Virus record (IMG/VR): IMGVR_UViG_3300015259_000001
DNA: 48,775 bases
Reading direction: 5' to 3' (one strand)
DNA from: a virus
A program made the translations under genes and the position numbers. The notes under the pieces were generated by a model that was not told the DNA's origin, searched no databases, and saw only the letters and a program-made list of their open reading frames with translations. The first letter of the stretch is position 1; every line of letters begins with the position of its first letter. Positions 18,122-34,794 of the stretch are shown one piece after another.

Positions 18122-18138
18122 TGCAATTTTCGTGCCCG
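18122..18138 (-). promoter_or_regulatory. sigma54 (-24/-12) promoter
   Basis: Minus strand CGGGCACGAAAATTGCA, exact GG-N10-GC spacing. Confidence 0.8.
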
Positions 18139-18167
18139 AAAAATTCGGGTCAATTTGGGTTCGGCGA

Positions 18168-18212
18168 CCGGCAAAAGGCCGCAAAATGCGGTCGAGTGCC
18201 GAAAATCGTCAC
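18168..18212. promoter_or_regulatory. 45-bp palindromic upstream element, copy 1
   Basis: CCGGCAAAAGGCCGCAAAATGCGGTCGAGTGCCGAAAATCGTCAC, near-identical to 28724 and 34750. Confidence 0.8.
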
Positions 18213-18847
18213 ATCGTGAATGGAGATTTACGCTTCCTAGCCTTACGAACACCTTCATTAGAGGCTTCAATAATTTGATTATCTCTAGTACGAAGACATG
18301 AATATGTATCATCTCTCGTACCTATTACTTCCATAAGACAAGCAAGGTCGCTAAACCCAGAGGCAAGATCATTATTACTCCATTTTTTGTACTTAGCATC
18401 TTCTATAGTATTTTCTCTTAACCACATAAAAGATTTAGCATTATTTGATCCACGGCCTAACGTTCTAAAGTAACCATTAGCAATGTTCATTACATAATCT
18501 GACGTAGTTATTAAGCATATATCAACCGGATAAAGAGTTTGTCCGTATAATGTAAGTTGATCTTTAGTATTATTATGAATATAAGTTACTGAATGTTCTA
18601 GGTTATCTTGTTCGTATGAAATTAGTTTACTTTCACCTCCGTTATTACCGTATAGGGCTTTAACGTCACAAGGACGACACCAAACATACCTTTCTATAGA
18701 GATATCTACAGTAGCAGACATAGATGCTAATTCTATTGAATCTCCCGGAAAACGGATGTAATCTGTAAAATACTTACGAACATCCTCGTCTATTACTTCA
18801 GCGTCAAATCTACCATAACTTTGAATCTTAAATTTCATAAACGCCAT
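18209..18847 (-). CDS. Hypothetical protein
   Basis: 212-aa co-oriented ORF. Confidence 0.65.
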   Translation of the reverse strand: MAFMKFKIQSYGRFDAEVIDEDVRKYFTDYIRFPGDSIELASMSATVDISIERYVWCRPCDVKALYGNNGGESKLISYEQDNLEHSVTYIHNNTKDQLTLYGQTLYPVDICLITTSDYVMNIANGYFRTLGRGSNNAKSFMWLRENTIEDAKYKKWSNNDLASGFSDLACLMEVIGTRDDTYSCLRTRDNQIIEASNEGVRKARKRKSPFTM

Positions 18848-19205
18848 ACCCTTCTTCGGTAGAATAATATGCTTTAGATATACCCATGCTACCCAATATA
18901 CGAGTGCAAATAAGACAAGGCTTAGCTAGTCCGTAAGAACTATCTTTTCTAATTCTTACCACATAAATATCTGACCCTTCAAGGTCATCTCTTTCTATGC
19001 CTATACAGGCGTCAACTTCAGCATGAATACCCGGAGTCCACAGTTTCCCATAGTTATACTCCCGCATTATAGGATGCGTGCGGCGCATATCGTTCCAACC
19101 CCACGATATAACACGGTTTCGCTTAGCTAGAACAGCACCCAACCTAAATTTAGAACTAGATCTAAGAGCAGTTTTAGCTGCCAATTCAAAATGTCTAATA
19201 TTCAT
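18828..19205 (-). CDS. Cytidine/deoxycytidylate deaminase-like protein
   Basis: LGAV, HAE, AKPCLIC. Confidence 0.8.
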   Translation of the reverse strand: MNIRHFELAAKTALRSSSKFRLGAVLAKRNRVISWGWNDMRRTHPIMREYNYGKLWTPGIHAEVDACIGIERDDLEGSDIYVVRIRKDSSYGLAKPCLICTRILGSMGISKAYYSTEEGYGVYEI

Positions 19206-19512
19206 AATCTTGTATATCTTTTATAAAATCAGGAATAAACCCGAACAATCTAATTAATTCTTTTTTCCAAAGCTTATTACCCTTAACATGTAAGTTATAG
19301 CCCTCAGTATAAAGTTTATAGCCCTCAGCCCGAAGCTTACTACCATTAACCCGTAGCTTATAGCCCTCAGCCCAATCTACGCTGAATCTGATAAGCTCCG
19401 GGCTGAGGGCAATAAGGTGAAGCTTATCGCCCTCAGCACAGAGCTTATCGCCCTCAGCGTAGAGCTTATCGCCCTCAGCGTAGAGCTTCATAGCTTTTTC
19501 GAGCCTATACAT
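19195..19512 (-). CDS. 'FGFIP' paralog family protein with 21-nt internal repeats
   Basis: (YAEGDKL)x3...ELIRLFGFIPDFI. Confidence 0.85.
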   Translation of the reverse strand: MYRLEKAMKLYAEGDKLYAEGDKLCAEGDKLHLIALSPELIRFSVDWAEGYKLRVNGSKLRAEGYKLYTEGYNLHVKGNKLWKKELIRLFGFIPDFIKDIQDYEY

Positions 19513-19564
19513 AAGCCCTCAAATAAGCCCCCTTATTTCTAAGGAGGCTTTGTTCAAGGCTTAT
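19511..19564 (-). other. Conserved intergenic RNA hairpin, copy A
   Basis: AUAAGCCUUGA...UUGAGGGCUUAU(G); arms shared with 26992 and 31104. Confidence 0.7.
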
Positions 19565-19887
19565 TACTTATTTTGCCGAATAATATGATAAAATACCAAA
19601 TTACTGCCCAAAGTACCTTTAGGGTATTGTTAGTATAAATACCCCATATAATTGTTCCAAATGGACAAAACAATGTAGACCATACAGGGTGTTGATCAAA
19701 CCACCATGTTAGAAATTCCATTAGCGTAGCTCCGTAGTGTTAATAGGATAAATATTACCATTATCATCCATCCAAACAAGTTTATTTTTAGGGGCAAGTT
19801 TAACTCTTTTGACACTGATTTCAGTACCAATAACATAACGTGGTCGCGTACCGAGTATAATGCCTCTACGATTCTTTTGACCGGCCA

Positions 19888-20130
19888 TTATTTCTCCCTT
19901 ACAATATCCATAACTGTCTCATCTTCGTATCCATCTGGCGCTTCACCCCAAGGAATACTATTCGCACAATTGGCATCTACCGGGATTTGGGCCTCCGTGA
20001 TACTGTCGGCCTCCATGATATTATTCATTTCTTCTGCAAGCCACGTATGAGCGTCAAATTCCGCATCTTCTTTAGACTCAGCCCAAAAATATGCCACTAC
20101 CTCAACGCTAGCTCGATAAAGTTTATTCAT
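19888..20130 (-). CDS. Acidic hypothetical protein
   Basis: Co-oriented ORF. Confidence 0.6.
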   Translation of the reverse strand: MNKLYRASVEVVAYFWAESKEDAEFDAHTWLAEEMNNIMEADSITEAQIPVDANCANSIPWGEAPDGYEDETVMDIVREK

Positions 20131-20347
20131 ATTTATTTTCCTTAAATTTAATTGATGCAGCTATTATAGAGTCATGCAACTTTGTTAAAAGTCTATTAAG
20201 TTCTTTATCCGTACCCCACGCGAAGATGCTCTTATCGTTTACAGCTTTTTCAAAAATCTCTTTAGTTTTTACAAAATCTTCTACAGTAAACTCTTTATTT
20301 TTTTCACATTCTGCCAAATACGTTCGAATATCATCTATTGCAGTCAT
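20123..20347 (-). CDS. Hypothetical protein
   Basis: AAGGA RBS. Confidence 0.6.
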   Translation of the reverse strand: MTAIDDIRTYLAECEKNKEFTVEDFVKTKEIFEKAVNDKSIFAWGTDKELNRLLTKLHDSIIAASIKFKENKYE

Positions 20348-20375
20348 ATTATCGTCCTTCTATATTGGAATAAAA

Positions 20376-20451
20376 TGGTACCCTCGGAAGGACTTGAACC
20401 TTCAACCTACTGGATATAAGCCAGTTGCTCTAACCATTGAGCTACGAGGGT
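20376..20451 (-). tRNA. tRNA-Ile (anticodon UAU)
   Basis: ACCCTCG acceptor, anticodon arm ACTGG-CT-TAT-AT-CCAGT, GTTCAAGTC, encoded CCA. Confidence 0.9.
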
Positions 20452-20456
20452 GTAAT

Positions 20457-20657
20457 CTAGTACACAGAAGACACGAATAACTCTCTTTCGAGATCGCTGT
20501 CATCTGCTTGCATATATTCAAGAATCAAAAGTCCACAATACAAAGCCTCAAGAGGCTTTAGTGTATTGACCTTTTCTCTGAAATCAGCACGATTACCATT
20601 ACGCCAATCTGATAGCAACTCAATAGCTATACTTTCAATTTCATTACGATCCATCAT
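20457..20657 (-). CDS. Hypothetical protein
   Basis: Co-oriented ORF. Confidence 0.55.
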   Translation of the reverse strand: MMDRNEIESIAIELLSDWRNGNRADFREKVNTLKPLEALYCGLLILEYMQADDSDLERELFVSSVY

Positions 20658-20979
20658 AAAACGGTCCTTTTGCGTATTCCTTAATAAATGCTACTTGTTT
20701 CCCCGATTTACTACGAAGCACTCCTTCGATTGGGGTCTTATAGTAGCAAATTTTCATACCAAGAGCAATCAATTCAGCCAACGACCTTCCGAACCATTCA
20801 GTCAATTGGTTAATCGTTTCAAATCCACAAACATGCCGCATTCCAAAACTGTCGAAGTCTTCATAGGCTCCCTCTCCACGAGGGTTATCATACAATAGCT
20901 TATATTTCTTAGACTCCGTTAGTATACGGGAAGTATACGGACCTCTACCGTTTTTATCTTCAAGTCTATAGATTTTCAT
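20644..20979 (-). CDS. Conserved phage hypothetical protein
   Basis: IYRLE..GRGPY, CGFE..QL.EWF motif. Confidence 0.7.
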   Translation of the reverse strand: MKIYRLEDKNGRGPYTSRILTESKKYKLLYDNPRGEGAYEDFDSFGMRHVCGFETINQLTEWFGRSLAELIALGMKICYYKTPIEGVLRSKSGKQVAFIKEYAKGPFYDGS

Positions 20980-20990
20980 TATTTATCACC

Positions 20991-21290
20991 CTAATCTATT
21001 CTTCCATAAGCTTCAAATATATGTACTAGGACTTTAAAATATTTATTACGAGGAGAATGTCCACAACACACACAACGTATTATTTTTTCAGCTTGAGCTT
21101 TTTCCCAATCTACTTGAAAAGATTTACCATAAATAGTATCTAATGAATAACATGATTCAGTTGCATACCCTATATTTTCAAGACATCCTATATGCAAAAC
21201 AGTATTATAGCTAGATCCATATTCATCTGATTCAATTCTAGCTATTAACCATTTACCTGATTTATAGTATATAGTATGTTTAATCGTCAT
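20991..21290 (-). CDS. Zn-ribbon paralog (recent tandem duplicate)
   Basis: Shares YYKSGKWLIARIESDEYGSSYNTVLHIGC with 21296..21601. Confidence 0.75.
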   Translation of the reverse strand: MTIKHTIYYKSGKWLIARIESDEYGSSYNTVLHIGCLENIGYATESCYSLDTIYGKSFQVDWEKAQAEKIIRCVCCGHSPRNKYFKVLVHIFEAYGRID

Positions 21291-21295
21291 TTATA

Positions 21296-21601
21296 CTAGC
21301 GGCCGTAAGCTTCGAATAGATGAACAAGGGTTTTAAAATACCTACTACGAGGAGAGCGTTCACAATGCCAACAAGTTATGATTTTTGTAGTTTGCACTTT
21401 ATGCCAATCCATTTGAAAAGATTTACCATAAATAGTATCAATGAAATTACACGATTCATTTGTATACATTGTATTTCTAGCTTTAAAGAAAGAATCACAT
21501 CCTATATGCAAAACAGTATTATAGCTAGATCCATATTCATCTGATTCAATTCTAGCTATTAACCATTTACCTGATTTATAGTATATACTGTATTCAATCA
21601 T
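21296..21601 (-). CDS. Zn-ribbon paralog (recent tandem duplicate)
   Basis: As above; CWHC. Confidence 0.75.
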   Translation of the reverse strand: MIEYSIYYKSGKWLIARIESDEYGSSYNTVLHIGCDSFFKARNTMYTNESCNFIDTIYGKSFQMDWHKVQTTKIITCWHCERSPRSRYFKTLVHLFEAYGR

Positions 21602-22527
21602 TATATATCATTTGGGTGACGAAGACCAAGCCATACTGGAAATCTAGGCTTATCCTTCATACCCGTTTTCTGATACTTAAATTTAGCAAGTCTACCTAGA
21701 AATCTATCTCTACCTTTCCAGATTACAAATCTTTCCTTTTCAACAAATCCTGTACCGATCTTAAACTGACCAAATACAGGATGCTCTACAATAATAGCAC
21801 CAAGAGTATTACCGTGTCGCATACCATCTTGTGCTTGGCTACGCTTAGTCCTGCCAAATGCATCTTTCTCTGCGTTATTATCGTTATGTAGGAGTTCCTC
21901 AAACCCAATAATAACAGCTTCATCATCCTCAAAACGCTTTAGCTTAAGTAGATATCCTTCATTCTCCGTACTGCGGCCCTGCTTGTAAGGGCCATAAGCA
22001 GAACGAATCATAACTCCCTCATAGCCTTGAGTAATATACTGTCCTTCAACGTAATTCAATTCCATTTCATTCTTAATTTCTTCAGGAACAACTAGTTTAT
22101 GAGGAAAATTGGACAAATCAAGCTCTGCCAAATCTACCATTCGGCGTAGATAAGCTGTTTTTGGGTTATCCTTTATGTAATCAAATATATGATATACAAA
22201 ATTAGGATTACCGTCTTCACTCATTACATTTGAAGTAATATCAGAAAAGCTAGAGTCTGCATTTTGCAGCATAAGCTCACCATCAAGAACAGAAGGAATA
22301 CCTTTCAATTTATCTTGGATATGTCGATTAGGGATAGGAAGAAATTTCCTAGACAATAGTTTGCCATCTACAACCAAAGCTCGAATACCATCCAGCTTGG
22401 GAGTGACAAATACCGGGTACTTCAAAAGTTTAGGAGATTCGCACTTACCTGCCAGCATCGGCTTTTTAATCATGTTAATCCCAAAGGGCAAAGAAATGAT
22501 TTTGAAACAACTTCCAACCTTCCTCAA
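21601..22527 (-). CDS. ATP-dependent DNA ligase (minimal phage type)
   Basis: KPMLA, TPKLDGIR, LDGE, EGVMIR, LLKLK, GTGF, RFPVW; true start probably MIKKPML. Confidence 0.93.
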   Translation of the reverse strand: MRKVGSCFKIISLPFGINMIKKPMLAGKCESPKLLKYPVFVTPKLDGIRALVVDGKLLSRKFLPIPNRHIQDKLKGIPSVLDGELMLQNADSSFSDITSNVMSEDGNPNFVYHIFDYIKDNPKTAYLRRMVDLAELDLSNFPHKLVVPEEIKNEMELNYVEGQYITQGYEGVMIRSAYGPYKQGRSTENEGYLLKLKRFEDDEAVIIGFEELLHNDNNAEKDAFGRTKRSQAQDGMRHGNTLGAIIVEHPVFGQFKIGTGFVEKERFVIWKGRDRFLGRLAKFKYQKTGMKDKPRFPVWLGLRHPNDI

Positions 22528-22855
22528 ATTCAGCCTTCAACAAGGCATTTTCTCTTTGAGGAGTAACCTTAAGGGTTTCCCATACAGATCCCGGTTCCGC
22601 AATAGTATTAGGATCGTCTTCGATAAACATGCCATCATGCTCAAGCCATAGTTCAATAGCTCTAATCATCTTATTCAACGTTGCTTCCCAGTCTTCCGGC
22701 GTAAAATCAGCAGGATAACCCATTCTGTTATAAGACTTGAAAGCCTTCAATCTAGGAAGAATAAGTCTAAGAATACTGTCATCAAGACTCCATAGTTCAG
22801 AGTCATCGAACCCTCTAGTTCTTCGCTGATACCAAAATTTAATTCGTTTAATCAT
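22475..22855 (-). CDS. Conserved phage hypothetical protein
   Basis: QRRTRGFDDSELWSLD...ALWD. Confidence 0.75.
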   Translation of the reverse strand: MIKRIKFWYQRRTRGFDDSELWSLDDSILRLILPRLKAFKSYNRMGYPADFTPEDWEATLNKMIRAIELWLEHDGMFIEDDPNTIAEPGSVWETLKVTPQRENALLKAEFEEGWKLFQNHFFALWD

Positions 22856-23108
22856 TATTAAATTCCTTATACAATCTTTCGATAGGATAACCGATTCTAG
22901 CGAATTCCGGTTCTACAAATGGCGTATTATATTCTTTACACCATTTTTTGGTTTTATTATAAGTGTATCTTATCCTAAACAGTTTATAGCTATATCGTAA
23001 AGCTTTACGGAGAACCTTATCCTCCATAGGAAATAACTTGGCCGGTTTGCCCGGTTCACTTTTTTCTGATTTATCATATGCTCTATCTAAAATAGCTAGT
23101 TTATCCAA
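22848..23108 (-). CDS. Hypothetical protein
   Basis: ORF immediately downstream of tRNA-Arg. Confidence 0.5.
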   Translation of the reverse strand: MDKLAILDRAYDKSEKSEPGKPAKLFPMEDKVLRKALRYSYKLFRIRYTYNKTKKWCKEYNTPFVEPEFARIGYPIERLYKEFNND

Positions 23109-23109
23109 T

Positions 23110-23184
23110 TGGTACCCCCTGAAGGAATCGAACCCTCATCCCATGGGTAGAAACCATGTGCTCTATCCGTTGAGCTAAGGGGGC
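23110..23184 (-). tRNA. tRNA-Arg (anticodon UCU)
   Basis: CATGG-TT-TCT-AC-CCATG arm, GTTCGATTC, CCA. Confidence 0.92.
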
Positions 23185-23193
23185 TAAAAATTC

Positions 23194-23415
23194 CTAGACT
23201 TCACCGTTAAGGAACGTTCGAGGGTCGCCCTTGATACTATTAAACTGTCGAGTATGTGGCATAACCTGAGATATATACCATAGCGTCAATACAATAGCTG
23301 CTTCGGCGCTATTCCAACCGAAAAAATATCCTATACAAGTGATTAAACTAGCTATTTTCAATCCTAATCCTAGAACAGAATCAAATAGCCTAATTGCTAG
23401 CATAGTTGTACTCAT
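23194..23415 (-). CDS. Small membrane protein
   Basis: Two hydrophobic segments. Confidence 0.6.
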   Translation of the reverse strand: MSTTMLAIRLFDSVLGLGLKIASLITCIGYFFGWNSAEAAIVLTLWYISQVMPHTRQFNSIKGDPRTFLNGEV

Positions 23416-23681
23416 TTTCTAACTCCTTCTTTCATTAAATATAATGCAGCACTTACATCTTTTGGAATATATTTTTTACATTCACAAATTGATGATGTTT
23501 TATCATACAATATAGAAATACAACCTCTATGAAATAAATAAGGATTATTAAGTAAACTTTTTAATTCTACTATCCAATAATCCCCTATTTTAACTTTAAC
23601 TGTCATTCCAATATATGGTGCCAATTGTTGTTCTATCCATTTTTCAGAAAACATAAATCTATTTAACAATCTACTAAACAC
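23412..23681 (-). CDS. Zn-ribbon paralog family protein
   Basis: IGDYWIV...FHRGC...CECKKYIPKDVSA. Confidence 0.75.
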   Translation of the reverse strand: MFSRLLNRFMFSEKWIEQQLAPYIGMTVKVKIGDYWIVELKSLLNNPYLFHRGCISILYDKTSSICECKKYIPKDVSAALYLMKEGVRK

Positions 23682-23683
23682 AT

Positions 23684-23941
23684 TTACCTAGTATATGGAC
23701 CTAAAAGAGTGATAATTACATCTAATTCTTTTGGTATAACAGTATTACAACTAAAACATAGCTTAGTAATAGATGAAGGATTGATACTATAAGCAGATTC
23801 ACAAGCGCATGTATTATGATAAATAAGGGCTGTAGCGCCTAGAATCCTAATATCCCAATCTATATATTTAATTTCTCTAAACCATCTAAAATCTAGTACG
23901 GATATCATATTATTATTAGTTATATGGACCCAAAAGAACAA
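23684..23941 (-). CDS. Zn-ribbon paralog family protein
   Basis: DWDIR...YHNTC...CFSCNTVIPKELDV; true start probably MISVLD. Confidence 0.7.
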   Translation of the reverse strand: MFFWVHITNNNMISVLDFRWFREIKYIDWDIRILGATALIYHNTCACESAYSINPSSITKLCFSCNTVIPKELDVIITLLGPYTR

Positions 23942-24136
23942 TAACTACATCTAATTCTTTAGGTATAGCATCATTGCATCTAAAACATCGTTTAAAATAA
24001 GGCGAAGTATTAACACTATAAGTAGAATCGGTATTACATGGATTATGATAAATACAAGCTGCATAACCTACTACTCTAATAATCCATTCCATATACATAA
24101 TTTGTCTAAACCACTTACCGTAATATGATACAGTTA
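23916..24136 (-). CDS. Zn-ribbon paralog family protein (the 5' part of the listed ORF is tRNA)
   Basis: EWIIR...YHNPC...CFRCNDAIPKELDV, paralog of 23684; start uncertain. Confidence 0.6.
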
Positions 24137-24224
24137 TGGTAGGGACGGTGGGACTCGAACCCACAAGCTCGTTATGAGCAACGGATTTTGAGTCCGTCGT
24201 GTCTGCCAATTCCACCACGTCCCC
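24137..24224 (-). tRNA. tRNA-Leu (anticodon CAA)
   Basis: ACGGA-CT-CAA-AA-TCCGT, long variable arm, CCA. Confidence 0.92.
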
Positions 24225-24235
24225 TCTCATTAAAC

Positions 24236-24311
24236 TGGAGCCAGTAGGAGGACTTGAACCCCCAACCAAGTGCTTACAAGGCACCTGCTCTACCATTGGA
24301 GCTATACTGGC
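24236..24311 (-). tRNA. tRNA-Thr (anticodon UGU)
   Basis: GGTGC-CT-TGT-AA-GCACT, CCA. Confidence 0.92.
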
Positions 24312-24613: not shown

Positions 24614-24641
24614 AATATAGCCTTTCTTTTTTGAGTATAAA

Positions 24642-24717
24642 TGGTGGGCCGTCTAGGAATCGAACCTAGAACCGACGGATTAAAAGTCCGCTGCTCTGCC
24701 AATTGAGCTAACGGCCC
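24642..24717 (-). tRNA. tRNA-Lys (anticodon UUU)
   Basis: GCGGA-CT-TTT-AA-TCCGT, CCA. Confidence 0.93.
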
Positions 24718-25168: not shown

Positions 25169-25531
25169 TTATTCTCCTAGCTCGATTACTTCAACCATAA
25201 ATCCTGCCTCCTTGGCAGCATTTATCATATCCCTAGTACCTCTGGATTCTGGACTAGGAAATGCAAGTACCAGTTCAATATCAGGATTATCTTTAAGCAT
25301 TTGTCTATTTCTAATAGGGCCTGCTGATTTGCCATATTTGCCCCATTCTGCAGGATATGGCAAATCTTTAATATCATTTTCCATAGCCCATGTTTTAGCT
25401 ATAGAGTCCACACCCGCAGCGGCTCCATGAACAATAATCAAATTCTCTTTCGGTAGACTATTAAGCCTATCTTCCACCAAATGGACAAAACGACGTAGAC
25501 ATATCCTACTACCACTTACTAGAACTTTCAC
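25169..25531 (-). CDS. SLOG-family (YspA/DUF2493-like) protein
   Basis: VLVSGSR, IVHGAA.GVD, PAEWGKYGKSAGPIRNRQM, SRGT..M. Confidence 0.88.
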   Translation of the reverse strand: MKVLVSGSRICLRRFVHLVEDRLNSLPKENLIIVHGAAAGVDSIAKTWAMENDIKDLPYPAEWGKYGKSAGPIRNRQMLKDNPDIELVLAFPSPESRGTRDMINAAKEAGFMVEVIELGE

Positions 25532-26178
25532 TTAACACCCATCATTTTTCTTAGATCGTTAATTGCACTAATCCGATAATGCTGCGAAAGTCTACGGCTC
25601 TTACCCCAAGACTCTGAAATTTCTCTGTCAATCATTGGCTTCTTACCGTTTAGTCCGAAATACTTGACTATTGTTTCTCTTTGCTTTGGTCGAAGCCGAC
25701 GCATAGCCTTATGAAGTCTAGCGATATCTTCACTTCTATCTTCTTCAACTTCAGGTTCAGGAGCAGCCAATTTCTTTTCCAGCAACTCAGTAATGGGATT
25801 AGATCGCTTATATTGAGTAAATTTATTCTCTTTATTAAGCATATGTTCCATATGTTGCCAAATAATAGGTACAACATATGTAGACAATTTGTATTTACGA
25901 GAAATATCAAACCCTCTAATACCTTCATACAAGCCTATCAACCCTTCCTGAAACATATCTTCCCAAGGCATATCCGTGAACCCATTCTTTCGATACTTAT
26001 GTAGTACCATTAGAACAAGTCTAGTATTATGTTTAACTAGATGCAAAACAATCTTATTTGCACCTTTATTTAGACCATAATGCTTACACAAAACCAAAGC
26101 ATTAAACAACGCTGCCTGTTTATCCGCAGGCAACTTAGGAAGTATCATATTATTGACGTATTCAGGTAGCGTAATCAT
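25528..26178 (-). CDS. Second, compact sigma70-family factor
   Basis: HNTRLV, EDMFQEGLIGL, FD.SR.YKLSTY, C-terminal HTH. Confidence 0.88.
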   Translation of the reverse strand: MITLPEYVNNMILPKLPADKQAALFNALVLCKHYGLNKGANKIVLHLVKHNTRLVLMVLHKYRKNGFTDMPWEDMFQEGLIGLYEGIRGFDISRKYKLSTYVVPIIWQHMEHMLNKENKFTQYKRSNPITELLEKKLAAPEPEVEEDRSEDIARLHKAMRRLRPKQRETIVKYFGLNGKKPMIDREISESWGKSRRLSQHYRISAINDLRKMMGVK

Positions 26179-26408
26179 TACGACTCGCTTGAACTCAACT
26201 TCTTATGTACCTTCTTACTATTACGCTTTAGCTTTTCCGTAAGAGGCAACTTCTGGTACGCCTCATTACGGGCCTCAGCTTCAACTTTTCTCTGTGCCTT
26301 GCGCTTAGGAAAATTCATCTTCAACATACCTACACATTTCCTTAGTCCAAATAGGGTTAAGAATACATAAACTAGCATTCTAGCTTCATCCATACAAAAG
26401 TGCATCAT
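26178..26408 (-). CDS. Hypothetical basic protein
   Basis: Co-oriented ORF. Confidence 0.5.
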   Translation of the reverse strand: MMHFCMDEARMLVYVFLTLFGLRKCVGMLKMNFPKRKAQRKVEAEARNEAYQKLPLTEKLKRNSKKVHKKLSSSES

Positions 26409-26731
26409 GAAACCTTATCTGTAAAATTATCAATATCTTCCATAAAATTAGGAATAAACCCGAACAATCTAATTAATTCTTCTTCCCATAGTCTATCGAC
26501 CTCACCCCATAGCTTATAACCTTTAATTCGAAGCTTATTACCCTGAATTTGGAGCTTTATGCTATTACTCCATAACTCCTCAATCTTACCCCAAAACTTA
26601 AGTCTATTTTCAGTATAGAGTTGATCACCCTCAGCTTGGAGCTTACGGCTTTCAGCTAAAAGTTTCTCACTCTCAGCATAAATATTCATAGATTCAGCAT
26701 AAAGTTTTATAGCTTCTTCGAGCTCAGACAT
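26405..26731 (-). CDS. 'FGFIP' paralog family protein
   Basis: MSELEEAIKLY...ELIRLFGFIPNFM. Confidence 0.85.
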   Translation of the reverse strand: MSELEEAIKLYAESMNIYAESEKLLAESRKLQAEGDQLYTENRLKFWGKIEELWSNSIKLQIQGNKLRIKGYKLWGEVDRLWEEELIRLFGFIPNFMEDIDNFTDKVS

Positions 26732-26824
26732 ATTTACTTATGTCTCTCATAAAATAAGGAACAAACCCAAATAATCTAATTAATTCTTTGTTCCATAGTT
26801 TATACGCTTCAATACAGAGCTTAT
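26708..26824. repeat. 117-bp direct repeat of 16892..17008 spanning a 'FGFIP' gene junction
   Basis: Identical by eye from TATAGCTTCTTCGAGCTCAGAC to CAGAGCTTAT. Confidence 0.85.
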
Positions 26825-26993
26825 CACCTTCATCCCAAAGATAAAGTCCTTCATAGATAAGCTTATCGGACGGCCGCCAGTCCGAACCACCCTTAGCCCA
26901 AAGCCTATTGCCATCATTGTAGAGGTTTTCGCCCTTAGCCCGTAGCTTCTTGCCCTCAACGCAGAGCTTCATAGCTTCTTCAAGCTTAGACAT
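26724..26993 (-). CDS. 'FGFIP' paralog family protein
   Basis: MSKLEEAMKLC...ELIRLFGFVPYFM. Confidence 0.85.
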   Translation of the reverse strand: MSKLEEAMKLCVEGKKLRAKGENLYNDGNRLWAKGGSDWRPSDKLIYEGLYLWDEGDKLCIEAYKLWNKELIRLFGFVPYFMRDISKYV

Positions 26994-27075
26994 AAGCCCT
27001 CAAATAAGCCCACCTAGAAGGTTATACACGAGCGGTCTACTTGTGGCTTCTAGGTGGGCTTGAATCAAGGCTTAT
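26992..27075 (-). other. Conserved intergenic RNA hairpin, copy B
   Basis: AUAAGCCUUGAUUCAAGCCCACCUAGAAG...CUUCUAGGUGGGCUUAUUUGAGGGCUUAU. Confidence 0.75.
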
Positions 27076-27377
27076 TCCTCGGTTTCCTCAGCAGCCCTTC
27101 TAGTAAGAAACTTTCTAATACGCATAGCATTGCCCTTAGTGCGGCTTTCTACCGCAACCTTACGAACGTTTCGAATATTCTCTGACTCACTCTGGTAAGT
27201 GTTTTCAGCACACTTAGCATGACCCGAAGTTTCCCTACGAATCTCGAAGCCAACTGTCTGATAACGCTCACCTTCACTGTCCCAGCAATCATAAGTACGC
27301 TGCACGGATTCTACCACGACCTTTACTTGCCGCTCACCCGGAGCAGAAAAAGATCCACAAAATCCACATCGGTACAT
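27072..27377 (-). CDS. Hypothetical Zn-finger protein
   Basis: CGFC ... HAKC. Confidence 0.6.
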   Translation of the reverse strand: MYRCGFCGSFSAPGERQVKVVVESVQRTYDCWDSEGERYQTVGFEIRRETSGHAKCAENTYQSESENIRNVRKVAVESRTKGNAMRIRKFLTRRAAEETEE

Positions 27378-28231: not shown

Positions 28232-28624
28232 TTACAAAACGTTAGCCCAAATAATTGCGGCTGCCATGTCTGTACCAAATACAGACTTAGCAATCTCATC
28301 CGCAATGCTGTCAAGCTCAGAAACGTAAGGATCACCCTCAATAAGGATACCACTTAGAATAGGCATCCTAACATCCGCACCACCATGGAAGCGTGCCATA
28401 CGCCACACATAATAAGCACGACTACCAATAACGCCATTATCTCGGCGCAACTTAGAAGGAAAGATAGCCCTAAACTTACCGTGTGCTCTACGTCCTCCCA
28501 TGTTGTAGACAAGGCCCACAATAGCAACCTTGTTTACTTCAGGGAAGGTTCCTTTACCGTGACAGAAGGGACAAAGCTGGTCCTTCCAACCTGTACCCTT
28601 ACCTTTGCATTTCGTACAGTCCAT
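28232..28624 (-). CDS. DnaJ-type Zn-finger-containing protein
   Basis: CTKCKGKG...CPFCHGKG; GAGG RBS; first gene after a sigma54 promoter. Confidence 0.7.
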   Translation of the reverse strand: MDCTKCKGKGTGWKDQLCPFCHGKGTFPEVNKVAIVGLVYNMGGRRAHGKFRAIFPSKLRRDNGVIGSRAYYVWRMARFHGGADVRMPILSGILIEGDPYVSELDSIADEIAKSVFGTDMAAAIIWANVL

Positions 28625-28663
28625 GTTTTACCTCGCGCTCTCTATGAGCGCACAACCGACACC

Positions 28664-28680
28664 TGCAAATCCCATGCCTG
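28664..28680 (-). promoter_or_regulatory. sigma54 (-24/-12) promoter
   Basis: Minus strand CAGGCATGGGATTTGCA. Confidence 0.8.
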
Positions 28681-28723
28681 CGCGTCAATTGCGCGCAAGT
28701 GAACCCAAATGCGGGTCCGCGAA

Positions 28724-28768
28724 CCGGCAAAAGGCCGCAAAATGCGGCCGAGTGCCGAAAATCGTCAC
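28724..28768. promoter_or_regulatory. 45-bp palindromic upstream element, copy 2
   Basis: CCGGCAAAAGGCCGCAAAATGCGGCCGAGTGCCGAAAATCGTCAC. Confidence 0.8.
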
Positions 28769-29037
28769 CCCTTATCCGGGGGAATAAGGCTAGCAGTACG
28801 AGTGAGAGAAAGAGGAAACTCAATCTCAGCCTGCATAACCTTAATAATAATGTCTACTTTTTCAATATTCTTAAAAAGCTCCTCACGCATGTTAATAATC
28901 TTCTCTAGGGTAACATTCTCTTGCGTAGAAGAACAACAAGAACATCCAACAGACTGAATGTGCCAGCCTTGGTAATCACTCCATCCAATATTGTTGAATG
29001 GAGCAAAAATATACAGATTTTCTCTAGGGTCTCTCAT
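28765..29037 (-). CDS. Hypothetical protein
   Basis: SVGCSCCS motif. Confidence 0.55.
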   Translation of the reverse strand: MRDPRENLYIFAPFNNIGWSDYQGWHIQSVGCSCCSSTQENVTLEKIINMREELFKNIEKVDIIIKVMQAEIEFPLSLTRTASLIPPDKG

Positions 29038-29255
29038 ATCTTTATCTTTTTCTGATTACAACGCAGTCCGTACCAGAATGCACGAGCTTTACTGCGCTTA
29101 TAATACTCACCTTTACAGCTATACCTACAAAACCCTTGCTGATAAATGCTACTTGTATAGTGGGTTTTGGGCAATTTCCTATCACACCACAAACATCGCT
29201 GCTCTATCACGGCTTCCACCAATATTTCCAAACCTGCGGTTGCTGCATATTCCAT
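29034..29255 (-). CDS. Hypothetical Zn-finger protein
   Basis: CLWC...FCRYSC. Confidence 0.55.
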   Translation of the reverse strand: MEYAATAGLEILVEAVIEQRCLWCDRKLPKTHYTSSIYQQGFCRYSCKGEYYKRSKARAFWYGLRCNQKKIKI

Positions 29256-29510
29256 GCATTTATGGCTCTTAGTAAATCGGCTATACAGTAAAATTGCTCA
29301 GTTTGTAGCTCGCCTTGAACATTGGTTGGTAGATGTAGCCAAACATATGTCAATCTAAGATTCATTTGATATCTTTATGATCCGAAATTGTAAAATTCCA
29401 CCACAGCCAGCGATAAATAGGCGGATTATGAGCAAGAGTTAGCCTATAAGGTCTCCAATACCGCATAGCAACTCTAAAAGATTGTCCCCAAGAAGCTCTA
29501 ACAAACTTCA

Positions 29511-29714
29511 TTACGAAACCTCGTAATTATCCGCAGCATTCTGCATAGCGGACTCTATAGAGTCCCCTCCAAAAATATCACCATCATGGTCAGTAGGCTC
29601 CATGATATCTATATAATAAATATCAGGGTCTCCTTCCCCTCTAGTCATGAATTTACCGATCTCTACTATTTTTCCAGAATTTACAACTTTTTGGCAGAAT
29701 TCTTCAAAAGACAT
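29511..29714 (-). CDS. Hypothetical protein
   Basis: Co-oriented ORF. Confidence 0.55.
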   Translation of the reverse strand: MSFEEFCQKVVNSGKIVEIGKFMTRGEGDPDIYYIDIMEPTDHDGDIFGGDSIESAMQNAADNYEVS

Positions 29715-30458
29715 TACATAATCCTCAGATAAGGGTCAAATTCGGGATTCTCACCACGAGAATCCTCAACATATCCACGAGGATTGCTACGCATATGCGT
29801 AGAACCGATCTCGATATCGCAAGTCTTGTGCGAGTGACCAAAAAGCCACAAGATAGGTTTATAGTAATAAATGATATCATCCAAATTACTAGCATAGGCA
29901 GAATTTAGCTTATTACCTCGATAATCTTTATGCACGCATTGATAACTAGGCAGATGGTGGCTAACTACTACAACCTTTTCGTTTTCTTTTACCCTACTCA
30001 AATGAGTAACTATATTCTCTCTATCTTGCGCGTGCAATATAGCAGAATGTTCTGGCCTAAATAGATTTTGACCATAACGTATAAAAGTATAGTCATTTAG
30101 TTGTCTATTTACATACATGGCAAACATTGGGTCACTCCGGTCATTGTCTGTCCAAAGTGTAGTGCCAATAAATCTAATATCTCCGATGATACATGTACCA
30201 CCGTTCAGGTAATGCACATTGTCAGGCCACGAAAATTCATCCAAGTCTTTACGAACTTGGGTATAGTTTCCTTTGTAAAATTCGTGATTCCCCGCAACGT
30301 ATACTATGCCCTTGAATCGACTTGCCATAGACCAAATCCATTCGGCACCCTGCAAGCCTATGCCGATATCTCCGGGTATCCTCGGAATCCGTAGGCAGAG
30401 AGGGAATCTCAAACCCTTGAAATTCAAGGTGAATATCGCTGATTAGGCGAATAGCCAT
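29714..30458 (-). pseudogene. Calcineurin-like metallophosphoesterase, frameshifted near 30374
   Basis: Motif I (ISDIHLE) is in ORF 30249..30458; GD, GNHE, HH and GHSH motifs are in ORF 29714..30427. Confidence 0.8.
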
Positions 30459-30692
30459 TTAGTTAGTTCTCAAATGAGGATATACTTAAGTCCAGTTAGG
30501 GCATCAAGTATAACATCTTTCCAAAACTTCATTAGAGATTTACCTCTAATAATCAGTCCAGATAACCACGCTTACCAATTTCATAACAAGTAAACACCCA
30601 CACACTCAAAACCCAAAACTGCCAATGTTCTAGTGCGTAGATTCCGCAGATACCAAGAATTAGTCCATTAACACCGCCGAAAATAAGAAATT

Positions 30693-31043
30693 TCATGTTT
30701 TGCTCCAAGTAAATTCACAATTAGCAGGAGCACCCTCAAACATTGGCTTGATTTGCGTTTCTGTATAACCCGCCAGACCGCAACCTATCCGAGTTACATA
30801 GAAATGCAAATCTGGATTCTCTTTGGCATACACAATAAATTCAGATATATATTCTTGAATTTCCTCTATTGGGAGGGTTCGTAGGTTGGCATCTTTTGTA
30901 GGAATCGCATAACTATTGCCAGTCCTACCTTTACCCACACCATATTGTGCGCTATGCAATTGTCTAGCCGTAAGCGCAGCACCTTTGCCATGCCTACCCG
31001 CTAGATTTGAACCAAATACAAAAATCGACATTATGTTATCCAA
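30693..31043 (-). CDS. A1S_2505-like phage protein (macro-like fold)
   Basis: IFVFGSNLAGRHGKGAA, SYAIPT, VTRIGCGLAG. Confidence 0.85.
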   Translation of the reverse strand: MDNIMSIFVFGSNLAGRHGKGAALTARQLHSAQYGVGKGRTGNSYAIPTKDANLRTLPIEEIQEYISEFIVYAKENPDLHFYVTRIGCGLAGYTETQIKPMFEGAPANCEFTWSKT

Positions 31044-31103
31044 AATTGCTTAGGTTCTCAGGCCAGAGGCTTATGCCTATCGTTTGGCAACCTAAGCGGG
31101 TTA

Positions 31104-31192
31104 TAAGTCCTCAAATAAGCCTAGCATTGGGTTGTACGCTTGGAAATCGCGTTTGCGACCGTAGCCCAATGCTAGGCTTGAATCAAGACTTA
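31104..31192 (-). other. Conserved intergenic RNA hairpin, copy C
   Basis: UAAGUCUUGAUUCAAGCC...GGCUUAUUUGAGGACUUA; C-G to U-A compensatory change relative to copies A and B. Confidence 0.75.
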
Positions 31193-31194
31193 CT

Positions 31195-31377
31195 CTAGCA
31201 TGGAATTACACCGTCCGCAGGATACACACCCGTAACCTCCGACCAATAGCCTGCTTCCTTATGCCATTGCTCTACCGTTTGTGGGTCAGGTTCATCGCTG
31301 AATCTGCGAAAAGCCTCATCTTCGCTTTCAGCTTCTACTGAAAAAGCCTTCGTTACTTCTACAATAAACTTAGCCAT
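31195..31377 (-). CDS. Hypothetical protein
   Basis: Co-oriented ORF. Confidence 0.6.
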   Translation of the reverse strand: MAKFIVEVTKAFSVEAESEDEAFRRFSDEPDPQTVEQWHKEAGYWSEVTGVYPADGVIPC

Positions 31378-31555
31378 TTTTACCTTTTTCTGTTCTTAGG
31401 TATTTTTGATAATCTTGATAATCTTGATAATCTTGGATGATCTTAGCTTCAATAAGGTAGTCTTTCTTGACTTCGTCCCAAGTTACCTCGGGGTCAAGGC
31501 ATCCATATTCCTTATCGCGCTCAAAACAAGTCTTAGCAAGCGTTTCAAGATTCAA
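31370..31555 (-). CDS. Hypothetical protein, paralog of 31552..31728
   Basis: DKEYGCL.PEVTWDEVKKDYLIEA; (QDY)x3 9-bp repeat. Confidence 0.6.
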   Translation of the reverse strand: MNLETLAKTCFERDKEYGCLDPEVTWDEVKKDYLIEAKIIQDYQDYQDYQKYLRTEKGKNG

Positions 31556-31728
31556 ACGTGATTCTTTCGTGCTTCACGGGTTTCAAGCTCACGAGCTACG
31601 AAAGCCTCAGCCTCGATAAGGTAATCTTCCTTGACCTCATCCCAAGTTGCCTCGGGATTCGCAAGACATCCTTCCTCTTTGTCGGTACGGAAGAAATGCT
31701 TAGCCAGTAGTTCAATTACATCATTCAT
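31552..31728 (-). CDS. Hypothetical protein (58 aa, not in the ORF track)
   Basis: MNDVIELLAKHFFRTDKEEGCLANPEATWDEVKEDYLIEA...; AAGG RBS. Confidence 0.65.
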   Translation of the reverse strand: MNDVIELLAKHFFRTDKEEGCLANPEATWDEVKEDYLIEAEAFVARELETREARKNHV

Positions 31729-31732
31729 TACC

Positions 31733-32002
31733 TTATTCCTTATAATAGTCGCTAGCAGAGGGTGCTGACTCTACAGTTTCTCCAATAAACTCAATCACCG
31801 TTTCACCGTCCACACCCTCAAAGATCATCCAGTTAGCTGCACTCAGCTTGCTAGTCAGATACTTACAGAGTGGTGAAGCATTAGGAGAAAAAACAGGCTC
31901 ATTCTCAGGACACGCCCTCATGTGAGCCTCGATAAGGGCATTATAAGTAGGATGCTGATAAACATATTCAGCTTCAGGCCCAAGGTCCATGATTACCTCC
32001 AA
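31733..32002 (-). CDS. Hypothetical protein
   Basis: Co-oriented ORF. Confidence 0.55.
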   Translation of the reverse strand: MEVIMDLGPEAEYVYQHPTYNALIEAHMRACPENEPVFSPNASPLCKYLTSKLSAANWMIFEGVDGETVIEFIGETVESAPSASDYYKE

Positions 32003-32587
32003 AAGTTATAGATATCCGGGTCGTAAGGGTCCTTGCACTCGAAAATCTTGCTGAGAACCGCGTTGATACCGTAGTATACGACACCAGCGGTGATATAGCC
32101 AGCAAAAAATACGGCAACAAAAATAATCATTCTTTTACTCCTGAGAGTCGAAGACCTTACCGTCTTCATCCCAAAGCTTTTTGCAATCGTCCATTTTATA
32201 TCCTTTTAGCTTTGATTAGAGCACTACGAACACGCTCTATATCATTAGGTCTACCGATTTTCTTAGCTATAGTTTCAAGGCTATGTACGCCCTTGTCCCA
32301 CAGCTTTATAATTCTCTGATCTGTATGGCTTACCATAAAGACCCCGCCGCGTTTATTCGTCCGCGAAAACGCCTCGAAAACCCGCGTTATCCCGCGTCAC
32401 GATGCGCCAAATGCGCCAGAATCGACGATACCACTCGGATCGGTGTCCGCACCCTCGCGCGTCGGCGTTTGCGCTTCCTGCGCGATTCCTCGCGGTTGCT
32501 GCCGAGTAGTCTTAGCCTCACACTTCTCACAGCAACACCATTCCCAAGGCATATCTTGTGACTGAAGGTATCCAGCGATACAAAACA

Positions 32588-33046
32588 TTATATACTTGCC
32601 GTTCCCTGATTCATGTGCAAGTCCAGAATCAGGCGATAGATTAGTCTATTCGGATGATATGGAGCCTTGAAAAACTCCTCATCCGTACCAAGAAAGATTT
32701 TGCTCAAAGCAGCAGCAACACCAGCACTCCTAGAGATGCCAGCGTCACAATGAACATAAAGCTCTTGGATAGCCAACACATTCCAGCGGATAAAAGCGTA
32801 AATTTCCCTCGCATGGAGCGTATCGGGCAGAATATAGGGCTCCCCATTCATGTCAACCCCACCTGCTTCCGTGGAGTCCATGTCATGAAAAGCTACACGC
32901 TTTATCCCGATATCGTAAGGCTTACGATGCTGAATATAGGCGATATCATCCCCCGGAGTGGTAATAGAAATCCAAGCATGATGCACCTTCGGAGGGGGAA
33001 TAAACTTTTCTGCTTCTTTGCGCGAGAAAACCCTGATCTTTTCCAT
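32588..33046 (-). CDS. Protein-tyrosine/dual-specificity phosphatase-like protein
   Basis: ISIT, FHD, VHCDAGISRS (CX5R), PN.LIY. Confidence 0.88.
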   Translation of the reverse strand: MEKIRVFSRKEAEKFIPPPKVHHAWISITTPGDDIAYIQHRKPYDIGIKRVAFHDMDSTEAGGVDMNGEPYILPDTLHAREIYAFIRWNVLAIQELYVHCDAGISRSAGVAAALSKIFLGTDEEFFKAPYHPNRLIYRLILDLHMNQGTASI

Positions 33047-33051
33047 GTGTC

Positions 33052-33249
33052 TTAGTCCAAATCCGTTACAGGACGGATAGAGTTATTGTTTCGCATGATA
33101 GCGAGCACATTCGCCCGCTCTTTGCGCTTCACTTGCTCGCGATCAATACAAGGAATGCACCTACCGCATCCCTCATCGTGTCGTGGGTGGTAAAAAATAC
33201 TACTCTCAGGGCACTTGACCCACCCAATTGCCGCATAATTATCTGACAT
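33052..33249 (-). CDS. Hypothetical protein
   Basis: Co-oriented ORF with Cys motifs. Confidence 0.5.
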   Translation of the reverse strand: MSDNYAAIGWVKCPESSIFYHPRHDEGCGRCIPCIDREQVKRKERANVLAIMRNNNSIRPVTDLD

Positions 33250-33357
33250 TTCTACTTCCCTTACTCCAAGTTGCCCACGCTAATGCGCTAGGGAATAATA
33301 CCCACATAAATATATGTATCAGGTAATTATTCCATAAAGCACAGAATAGGTCAAGCA

Positions 33358-33564
33358 TTAGTCTTGAGGATACTGACAGGTCATGTGACCTTTGACCTCA
33401 CCTTGCTCGCCGCAATCGGGGCAAAACACCCTTGCGCGTTTCTTGCCTGCACGCTGCGCGTTCTTGACGGATTGACTTTTGCGTGCCGAATACTTATCAA
33501 AAGTCTTGTTATTGCAGCAAGCACAGCCCGGCCTCAAAGCCTGCTTACCATGATAAGGTTTCAT
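33358..33564 (-). CDS. Hypothetical Cys-rich protein
   Basis: GCACC, CPDC. Confidence 0.55.
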   Translation of the reverse strand: MKPYHGKQALRPGCACCNNKTFDKYSARKSQSVKNAQRAGKKRARVFCPDCGEQGEVKGHMTCQYPQD

Positions 33565-33797
33565 GCTAGCAATTTCCTCACGAATAGGGCAGCGTTATGG
33601 TGATACCAGCAATAGCCTTTTACGCTATCGTAATATGAAACTTTGCCGCACTTGCAGCAATAGCCATTGTTTTTTACGAATGCCTCAGCCTCATCTCTTG
33701 TGGAAAAGGATACAATATGTTCCCATTCCCCATTGGAGATAGGCTTGGCAATGTAAAACAATGTCTTGCTTTCACCATGCCAAACGATGATACGCAT
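33561..33797 (-). CDS. Hypothetical protein
   Basis: AAGGA RBS. Confidence 0.55.
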   Translation of the reverse strand: MRIIVWHGESKTLFYIAKPISNGEWEHIVSFSTRDEAEAFVKNNGYCCKCGKVSYYDSVKGYCWYHHNAALFVRKLLA

Positions 33798-33924
33798 TAC
33801 CGGATATCCTTTACGAAATACTTATAACCAAATAGCCTAATATAGACAGCCTTATCACTACCTATGATTAGCCTATCGGCTATCATTCTGACTATTCTCC
33901 GCCCCACAAACCAAATAGGCGGCA

Positions 33925-34200
33925 TTACCAGTCCCAACCCTCACGCTGAGCCTTGCGCGCATAGCACGCAGAATTTTCCCTTTCCCAAGGGAACAGCCAA
34001 TACGTTGACTTGTCTACCTCGCCTTGGGAATTGATTACCAAATCCCCACTTACCTTGCGCTTCATGGCTAGCGATAGGATAGAACCCTCCGATATCACGA
34101 TATGATTCGTGGGGCTACCATATACCAGCCTGAATTTGGGTTTCCAAGGTTTGATGCACTTGCAAATGGGTGAAAGCAACCCACAAAGGATACAACGCAT
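33925..34200 (-). CDS. Hypothetical protein
   Basis: AAGGA RBS. Confidence 0.55.
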   Translation of the reverse strand: MRCILCGLLSPICKCIKPWKPKFRLVYGSPTNHIVISEGSILSLAMKRKVSGDLVINSQGEVDKSTYWLFPWERENSACYARKAQREGWDW

Positions 34201-34213
34201 TGTTTAGATCCTT

Positions 34214-34444
34214 CTACCAAGAGGTAATCTCTGGTACAAACGTCCAAGCGTACAGTCTGGCGGCAGGATAAAAGTAGGCATAACCCTTCTGTCCTACCTT
34301 GAAACCATTGTTGGCGACATAATATCTATCATCACCAATGGTTATGGCTGCTTCATGCCCTGCCAAGCTCACTACTGTAGCAGGATGTCCCTCATGCCCA
34401 TTGATATCCCTACGAATCGTATACTCTGACATTATTTCGTGCAA
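34214..34444 (-). CDS. Hypothetical protein
   Basis: Co-oriented ORF. Confidence 0.55.
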   Translation of the reverse strand: MHEIMSEYTIRRDINGHEGHPATVVSLAGHEAAITIGDDRYYVANNGFKVGQKGYAYFYPAARLYAWTFVPEITSW

Positions 34445-34665
34445 CCTTTCCCGATAGGCTTGAAGTATTCCATGCGCTTCCAGATATTCGTGGAATACGC
34501 AGGAGTCTTAGCCATAGGTGCAGGCTTGACCCGCATGTATCGAAACGTTGCATTCTTGGGGAAACGCACAATACCCTGCGGCTCCCGCTTCCCATAAAGC
34601 TTAGCCACAGCTTCCCGCAGGCTTGCGTTCATACGCAAAGCCTGTATGATTTGCTCTTTGGTCAT
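34432..34665 (-). CDS. Hypothetical basic protein, first gene after a sigma54 promoter
   Basis: GGAGG RBS. Confidence 0.65.
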   Translation of the reverse strand: MTKEQIIQALRMNASLREAVAKLYGKREPQGIVRFPKNATFRYMRVKPAPMAKTPAYSTNIWKRMEYFKPIGKGCTK

Positions 34666-34689
34666 AGCCTACCTCCACCGCCGCAGACC

Positions 34690-34706
34690 TGCAAACGCCG
34701 TGCCTG
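34690..34706 (-). promoter_or_regulatory. sigma54 (-24/-12) promoter
   Basis: Minus strand CAGGCACGGCGTTTGCA. Confidence 0.82.
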
Positions 34707-34749
34707 CACATAAATGAGCGGCAAATGGACCCTACTTGACCCTCATTCC

Positions 34750-34794
34750 CCGGCAAAAGGCCGCATTTTGCGGCCGAGTGCCGAAAATCGTCAC
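34750..34794. promoter_or_regulatory. 45-bp palindromic upstream element, copy 3 (loop inverted)
   Basis: CCGGCAAAAGGCCGCATTTTGCGGCCGAGTGCCGAAAATCGTCAC. Confidence 0.8.

Follow-up and report, generated by a model that had tools for sequence, protein, structure and literature searches.

A repeated sigma-54-type promoter module with PilR-type upstream sites in phage DNA

We identified a module that occurs four times in the DNA of a phage and consists of a -24/-12 box of sigma-54 type preceded by a 17-bp site of the form GTGAC-N7-G(T/G)CAC. Judging from the sequence, the four copies (P1 to P4) are probably host sigma-54 promoters activated by the host pilin regulator PilR, a reading to which we assign a probability of about 0.75. 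The window, by which we mean the whole stretch of 48,775 nucleotides analysed, covers about 40% of a 121-kb genome. The DNA comes from an uncultured sediment phage.

Seven exact matches to GGCAYG-N4-TTGCA are present in the window, all on the minus (coding) strand, compared with a mean of 0.01 over 100 shuffles, a control proposed in a first-pass annotation of this DNA. When the spacer in GGCAYR-Nk-TTGC was varied, k=4 gave eight matches and each other value from 1 to 8 gave none or one. The boxes also fit the RpoN SELEX seed NGGCAYKNNNNTTGCAN. Sigma-70-like sites between 26500 and 39500 are at chance level (33 vs 28.6 expected), as are terminators in the same region (7 vs 9.7 expected), and an Rfam search of the window returned only tRNAs. 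P1 to P4 are intergenic and oriented with the coding strand; each precedes a gene start, with predicted leaders of 14, 29, 42 and 132 nt. They are likely promoters of sigma-54 type.

The first-pass annotation had described three boxes just upstream of genes on the coding strand, each with a near-identical GC-rich 45-mer, and both observations hold. The P1 box (GGCACG-GCGT-TTGCA, 34690..34704, minus strand) has a predicted +1 at 34679, 14 nt before the ATG at 34665, with a GGAGG ribosome site. The downstream gene (34432..34665, minus) encodes a 77-aa protein of no known family and heads a run of small genes. The P2 box (GGCATG-GGAT-TTGCA, 28664..28678, minus; predicted +1 28653, 29 nt from the ATG) precedes a gene for a 130-aa protein with an N-terminal CxxC pair (28232..28624, minus). 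The P3 box (GGCACG-AAAA-TTGCA, 18122..18136, minus; predicted +1 18111, 42 nt from the ATG) precedes genes for a DUF932 protein (17101..18069, minus), an AAA ATPase (15526-16650) and a DUF2201/vWA-like protein (14253-15515). The 45-mers at 18168, 28724 and 34750 start at distances of 32, 46 and 46 bp from the box, counted from its first G, and, with the 28724 copy as reference, differ from it at one, zero and three bases. The 17-mer forms one end of each 45-mer. It has one mismatch in P1 (34778..34794, 73 bp before the box), in P2 (28752..28768, also 73 bp) and in P3 (GTGAC-N7-GGCAC, 18196..18212, 59 bp).

The total of three modules does not stand: a fourth module and a tandem set of four boxes, located at 35651-36049 just beyond the annotated range, had been overlooked. 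The P4 box (GGCACG-AGGT-CTGCA, 35651..35665, minus; predicted +1 35640) has one mismatch and lies ahead of a gene for a 111-aa protein (35173..35508, minus). Its 17-mer, GTGAC-N7-GTCAC, is perfect (35756..35772, 90 bp before the box) and stands at the start of a fourth 45-mer at 35728-35772 that has diverged at 20 of 45 positions. Further upstream is an array of four exact boxes (35879, 35934, 35990 and 36035; 35879..36049, minus) spaced by 55, 56 and 45 bp, from which the next ATG is 360-520 nt away. No PilR-type site was found within 200 bp upstream of the two array boxes that were scored (A4 and A1). Between the array and the P4 17-mer is a Fur-type box (35827..35845) that matches 18 of 19 bases of the Fur consensus, where 0.01 matches are expected at up to three mismatches. 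As to a possible genome end at the array, one DNA contig crosses it at flat depth.

The in vitro selected seed for PilR (PA4547) of Pseudomonas aeruginosa, GTGACNNNNNNNGTCAC, is the sole row containing GTGAC in its atlas file (PMC8041468 supplement). This seed comes from one species and may not be the site of this phage's host; the older PilR consensus quoted in papers is TGT-N11-ACA. The host activator can be named as PilR because the 17-mer at the end of the 45-mer matches the site selected for PilR and because the same combination of site and box precedes pilin genes in bacteria. A search of 833 genome rows, some of them repeated and with Myxococcota, Desulfobacterota, Acidobacteriota and Verrucomicrobiota left out, gave 26 distinct matches of site plus box; a reversed control pattern gave one in total. 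A prepilin-type motif lies within 600 nt downstream in 20 of the 26, and NCBIfam confirmed three of these proteins. The pilin association is present in two distant bacterial groups. In two of five enlarged host regions the pilin has a gene for a sigma-54 response regulator no more than a few kb away, accompanied in one of them by a sensor kinase gene. The distance range and the core columns of the weight matrix in hosts are not independent support, because the search pattern set both. The first-pass proposal of a portable enhancer plus sigma-54 module served by one host activator is supported, with PilR nameable from the 17-mer and its activity here predicted. Host-phylum Atlas scores for this phage were below 0.9.

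Activators of the NtrC type usually have two sites, according to the accessible text of PMC11841059. A search for a second PilR-type site gave none above background in P1 to P3 and a single weak one in P4 (35778..35794, minus; score 3.3 vs 24.3), 22 bp upstream of the perfect site. About half of the 20 host pilin promoters likewise show no clear second site over the length scanned. The site-to-box distances of 59, 73, 73 and 90 bp do not share a single helical phase. An IHF site between the activator site and the box is usual but not universal in the PilR regulon. No IHF box was found in P1 to P4 or in the related phage L212, allowing up to one mismatch to the consensus.

In L212 the module is kept at the orthologous place, before a gene whose product is 73% identical to that of the P2 gene, and its 17-mer is perfect. 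The 17-mer with a box was identified in 57 viral stretches (48 sequence clusters), compared with 9 for a 5-bp box spacer and 11 for rearranged half-sites. An exact IHF box is present in 9 of the 57, and a pilin lies downstream in one. Among eight relatives identified by their terminase, clusters of boxes occur only in L125 and L128 within the flank examined. Two complete relatives have one or two boxes, like the control, and PilR-type pairing was found in none of five relatives. Annotated phages gave no terminase or array match, and a literature search found no description of PilR-type phage promoters.

The arrangement is alike in activator site, -24/-12 box and order of site, box and gene to the PilS-PilR/RpoN control of pilins, both at P. 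aeruginosa pilA and in the Nps-Npa system of pilE in commensal Neisseria. However, here it is carried by a phage in four copies and would drive small phage genes instead of pilin. The phage modules also lack an adjoining activator, kinase and IHF box, and three of the sites deviate at one position and are without a strong second site. Pseudomonas phage YuA likewise has a sigma-54-like promoter (P015) that uses the host sigma-54 polymerase, but it is a single promoter for which the accessible text of PMC10914365 names no activator or upstream site, in contrast to the repeated site plus box found here. The box consensus tGGcacg/tTGCt is shared with the Desulfovibrio and Myxococcus sigma-54 regulons, in which the activator sites are mostly no more than 100 nt from the promoter (PMC4641369, PMC11841059).

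The sigma-54 promoters could instead be activated by a different host enhancer-binding protein that recognizes a similar site, or by a phage protein whose gene lies outside the window; we consider this unlikely. About 72 of the 121 kb lie outside the window, six of the 26 bacterial matches precede genes other than pilins, and L128 has five sites of GTGAC-N6-GTCAC type, a different spacing, beside its boxes. However, the pilin association in distant bacteria and the uniqueness of the GTGAC seed both argue for PilR. As the first-pass annotation had stated, no GAFTGA protein is encoded in the window: six reading frames contain no GAFTGA-type motif or relative of an enhancer-binding protein, and PF00158 had no match among the 48 window ORFs scanned. 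PF00158 and PF04552 also had no match in the five relatives, two of them complete, and a stand-alone PilR HTH was found neither in the window nor in the relatives. A novel phage activator, the other option raised at first pass, is not needed by the module, although one may be encoded in the roughly 60% of the genome outside the window. The sites might also serve mainly as decoys, with the 17-mers and tandem boxes titrating PilR and the sigma-54 polymerase such that pilin synthesis falls and the cell is shut to other pilus-using phages. The four tandem boxes without an upstream site of their own fit this idea, as do the 390 viral stretches estimated to carry comparable arrays, with head-to-head pairs in 24 of the 121 loci examined. 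Every box in the window, however, faces downstream on the coding strand, P1 to P4 precede gene starts at normal leader length, and L212 keeps the order of site, box and gene. A mainly decoy role is therefore improbable, though it may coexist with promoter function.

Alternatively, the functional element could be the GC-rich dyad itself, bound by some DNA-binding protein or, as an RNA hairpin, terminating or processing read-through transcripts upstream of each promoter. The dyad (CGGCA-N3-GGCCGCA-N3-TGCGGCC-N3-TGCCG in P2, 28725..28757) folds at -22 kcal/mol with a z of about -4 in P1 (34751..34783, where the central A-tract has the opposite orientation to that in P2 and P3) and in P2, and its core GCCGCA-N3-TGCGG survives in L212. 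However, the fold weakens to -14.8 kcal/mol (z -1.9) in P3 (18169..18201), where one arm is mismatched, the dyad is absent from P4, and its outer arms are eroded in L212. No U-run follows the dyad. The full dyad had no match in viral contigs and one chance-like match in metagenomes, and apart from the latter no other 45-mer (up to 17 mismatches) was found in 0.95 Mb of loci. A related pattern, a CGGC-N5-GCCG tandem together with a box, gave four chance-like genome matches, three of them in long ORFs and none like the module. Motifs of the Desulfovibrio and Myxococcus regulons, such as CGGCA-N6-TGCCG (DVU2956), GCGCA-N5-TGCGC (NmpR) and GTCA-N6-TGAC (DVU2894), were rejected as identities of the dyad, as their spacings do not fit the 45-mer. 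A working role for the dyad is thus very improbable. The weight that the first-pass annotation had placed on the nested dyads is unsupported: these are degraded in both L212 and P4, and elsewhere they have only chance-like matches. The dyad appears to be a passenger that serves at most as a spacer or a weak second site.

Under activation by PilR, host RNA polymerase with sigma-54 would wait on each box as a closed complex, which PilR bound 59-90 bp upstream would open. This scheme supposes that the boxes fire, that the site is recognized by the PilR of the phage's host, and that the arm represents the early region. The three dispersed copies would have arisen by duplication and may boost transcription along an arm of about 35 kb whose genes all point one way. 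Given a PilR site before each box, the phage likely switches on a gene block via the host pilus regulator. PilS is described as activating PilR once the membrane pilin pool falls (accessible text of PMC6058289). The arm would therefore be expressed best in pilus-making cells, and infection would be tied to host piliation state through a membrane sensor of pilin levels. Pili are the receptor for many phages. Well-studied phages are not known to require a host signal at their early promoters. The early regions of T7 and SPO1 resemble this arm: tandem promoters lead into small genes that all run one way, promoter modules recur between genes, and there are long RNase III-type stems. However, their early promoters are activator-free and use the housekeeping sigma-70 or sigma-A.

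A broader reading is more tentative, and we think it somewhat doubtful. The whole early arm may belong to the host PilR regulon, with lytic expression only when PilS-PilR reports active pilus assembly. Iron would be a further input, the Fur-type box gating read-through from a battery of sigma-54 polymerases loaded in advance. Dozens of unrelated phages would share this PilR wiring, making it a widespread, undescribed strategy gated by host state. The combination of site and box, present in the 57 viral stretches, is a sequence handle for finding such phages, and if PilR is the activator, the hosts of these uncultured phages would be limited to PilR-bearing bacteria.

Contigs from two RNA runs span the first genes after P4 and P3; these data are assembled contigs that show neither strand nor start. 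One RNA contig extends beyond the predicted P4 start by 81 nt on the upstream side, and P4 is thus not the sole possible source of that RNA. No contig from RNA runs X5 or X7 covers the stretch just past P1 or P2, which is uninformative as the cover of these runs is sparse and contig-based. The P4 gene product belongs to a small family. A structure model of it (pLDDT 84) had no Foldseek match at E<=0.001 and resembles a PC4/Sub1-like fold weakly (VIA Z 3.5-3.7, rmsd 3.4-3.8 over 52-57 residues), tied with unrelated rows. The third codon positions of this gene are 82% G+C, compared with about 30% in most of the arm.

We identified a repeated, putative sigma-54 promoter module in the window. The first-pass annotation had reported three boxes of the form GGCAYG-N4-TTGCA (P1, 34690-34704; P2, 28664-28678; P3, 18122-18136), each with a 45-mer upstream, and both boxes and 45-mers lie where it placed them. 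The pattern was set after three of the sites had been seen, but it is identical to the RpoN seed NGGCAYKNNNNTTGCAN obtained by independent selection (PMC8041468, supplementary file 2). It matches exactly at seven sites, every one on the minus strand, compared with 0.01 in shuffled controls. This enrichment is found only at a spacer length of 4 bp. The remaining four exact matches, which the first-pass annotation had overlooked, form a tandem array (35879-36049). In addition, a box with one mismatch (P4, 35651-35665) follows a fourth, diverged 45-mer that lies 63 bp upstream. The P4 repeat shares with those of P1-P3 the 17-bp end, a perfect GTGAC-N7-GTCAC in P4, and the closing TTGCCG. The repeated module is a real feature.

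The emphasis initially placed on the GC-rich dyad of the 45-mer is not borne out, as searches elsewhere gave no convincing match to the dyad, and it is absent from P4 and partly eroded in a related phage (L147/L212). In that phage the module precedes an orthologue of ORF 28232-28624 (73% amino-acid identity) and keeps a perfect 17-mer, the box, and a spacer like that of P3. Because the 17-mer and box persist there while the dyad erodes, the near-identity of P1-P3 probably reflects duplication and exchange among copies, and does not prove that every base is working. The 17-mer is found 58–88 bp before a box in 57 viral stretches, which fall into 48 clusters and include L147/L212; extra copies often lie nearby. 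With a box spacer of 5 the count drops to 9 stretches, and with rearranged half-sites to 11.

The 17-mer matches the dimeric HT-SELEX seed of PilR (PA4547), GTGACNNNNNNNGTCAC, from an atlas of factors of P. aeruginosa, which may not be the host of this phage (PMC8041468 supplement). GTGAC is found only in the PilR row of that atlas file. An older PilR consensus quoted in two papers, TGT-N11-ACA, would arise at the junction of two 17-mers 22 bp apart. A strict site-plus-box pattern was matched in 3 of 301 genomes from the class of a Rhodocyclaceae genome and in 3 of 251 from the phylum of a planctomycete-like genome (labelled from its proteins), with a prepilin-type gene downstream of five of the six matches. 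The looser pattern TGAC-N7-GTCA was matched in 3/3, 11/56, 1/101 and 7/121 genomes of four sets; the single match among 101 genomes (the class of a Novosphingobium genome) does not precede a pilin, and all seven in the last set do. After removal of two duplicates, a prepilin motif (called by pattern, and confirmed with NCBIfam for three such proteins) follows 20 of 26 bacterial matches at no more than 600 nt. Most bacterial genomes searched contain no exact match. In two of five enlarged bacterial regions, the pilin has a sigma-54 response regulator nearby. A matrix built from these 20 host sites ranks the four window sites 1-4 (24.3, and 17.2 three times; the next scores 11.3), although its core columns, like the host distance range, were fixed by the search pattern. 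Three host promoters (L208, L211, L234) have GGCA-type variants of the P1-P3 kind as secondary sites.

Several results stand against PilR as the activator. P1-P3 each carry a single imperfect PilR-type site with no clear partner, no IHF box was found in the modules, and the site-to-box distances follow no single helical phase. Among relatives that share the terminase, box clusters occur in the flanks of two of eight, box counts are at background in two complete genomes, and the pairing of PilR site and box is found in none of five. The wiring is therefore not general in this family. One relative, L128, has an N6-spaced palindrome in place of the N7 site, possibly for a different host activator. 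Next to divergent sigma-54 boxes it carries five GTGAC-N6-GTCAC-type palindromes (L128:3387-3883), three of them spaced 33 bp apart, and two copies of a promoter module lie at about 870 and 2580.

On balance, we consider it probable (roughly three in four) that the module is a PilR- and sigma-54-dependent promoter, as if a bacterial pilin promoter had been transferred to the phage and copied four times. Sigma-54 holoenzyme binds the box and is held there until an activator that is bound upstream and driven by ATP acts on it (PMC4641369). PilR activates pilA with sigma-54, and its activity is raised by PilS as pilin levels fall (PMC6058289). The window encodes no activator, and none is present in five terminase relatives. 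Since sigma-54 needs an activator, none is encoded in the window, and PilS-PilR controls pilA, the modules are likely to be on in cells with active PilR, with P4 as the likely lead promoter and P1, P2 and P3 as three boosters of the leftward arm. One sigma-54-like promoter is described for Pseudomonas phage YuA (PMC10914365). In the literature covered, which includes few subscription journals, we came across no description of phage promoters carrying PilR sites, and nothing turned up on phage with PilR or on RpoN early promoters of phages.

The tandem array has no PilR-type site of its own in the 200 bp upstream of the two boxes scored, and similar arrays, in many cases head-to-head, are frequent among unrelated phages; it may therefore serve in loading or as a decoy. 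Among viral contigs, tandem and head-to-head box arrays occur in an estimated 390 stretches, and in 24 of 121 loci (L001-L121) two boxes stand head-to-head no more than 40 bp apart. The array region also contains three TGCA-N7-TGCA palindromes (35669-35683, 35796-35810, 36053-36067), two of which adjoin a box as TTGCACTTGGCACG; terminase relative L125 shows this context too. The sequence at 35827-35845, flanked by the array on one side and the P4 PilR-type site on the other, matches 18 of 19 bases of the Fur consensus. A viral contig, L062, has a 17-of-19 Fur-type box 30 bp from a sigma-54 box. Such boxes (≤4 mismatches) are uncommon near phage sigma-54 arrays, with 7 within 250 bp of boxes in 137 kb versus 10 in 780 kb elsewhere. 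Fur has no row in the P. aeruginosa atlas file (PMC8041468).

The window covers 48.8 kb of a tailed-phage genome; the terminase (44615-46732; at least 168 relatives) is on a contig of at most 121 kb. The DNA is present in seven runs from seven studies, all of freshwater sediment, and three of these runs are possible sources of it. Nearly all genes leftwards from about 38.4 kb are on the minus strand. This arm encodes many small ORFs of unknown function, five tRNAs (A/T-rich codons), DNA ligase, RNA ligase and, downstream of sigma-54 modules, two sigma-70-family proteins (3546-4718 and 25528-26178, minus strand), which suggests that phage sigma factors take over later. Third-position G+C is 82% in the arm-head gene compared with about 30% in most genes further on, suggesting a high-G+C host.

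At both P4 and P3 the first gene downstream is covered by contigs from two RNA runs, mostly at least 99% identical. At P4 one contig stops 13 nt short of the predicted start and the other extends 81 nt past it, although such contigs report presence in RNA libraries, possibly with DNA carry-over, and not strand, start or level. Contigs of both runs also span an intergenic stretch (34835-35020, minus strand), from 34834/34837 to 35014/35015, and the stop common to both weakly hints at a small RNA. The stretch is closed by an 11-bp stem and has several GGA motifs, but its folding is not significant (z -1.5) and it has no Rfam match. Four strong hairpins in a row (35030-35175, minus strand; z -5.4) lie directly 3' of ORF 35173-35508, and both RNA contigs over this ORF end within this stretch (35172 and 35158). 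Gene starts are preceded at three places by related long stems that share an internal loop (19505-19567, 26990-27078 and 31100-31195, minus strand; z -6.6 to -8.9); these are similar to the sites at which RNase III processes early phage transcripts.

At least 11 paralogous small ORFs with a heptad-like repeat occur on the minus strand (1021-3530, 16622-17100, 19195-19512, 26405-26993); most end LW..ELIRLFGF.P, and the one scanned has no family match. Four ORFs preceding the terminase (41783-44615, plus strand) share the C-terminus QxxEYKxxMKPLSKKEQERSARGI. Five tandem copies of an 11-bp unit span an ORF junction at 13734-13799. A 127-aa ORF with a signal-peptide-like start (38506-38889, plus strand) is preceded by an extended -10 sigma-70-like site and is covered by contigs of both RNA runs.
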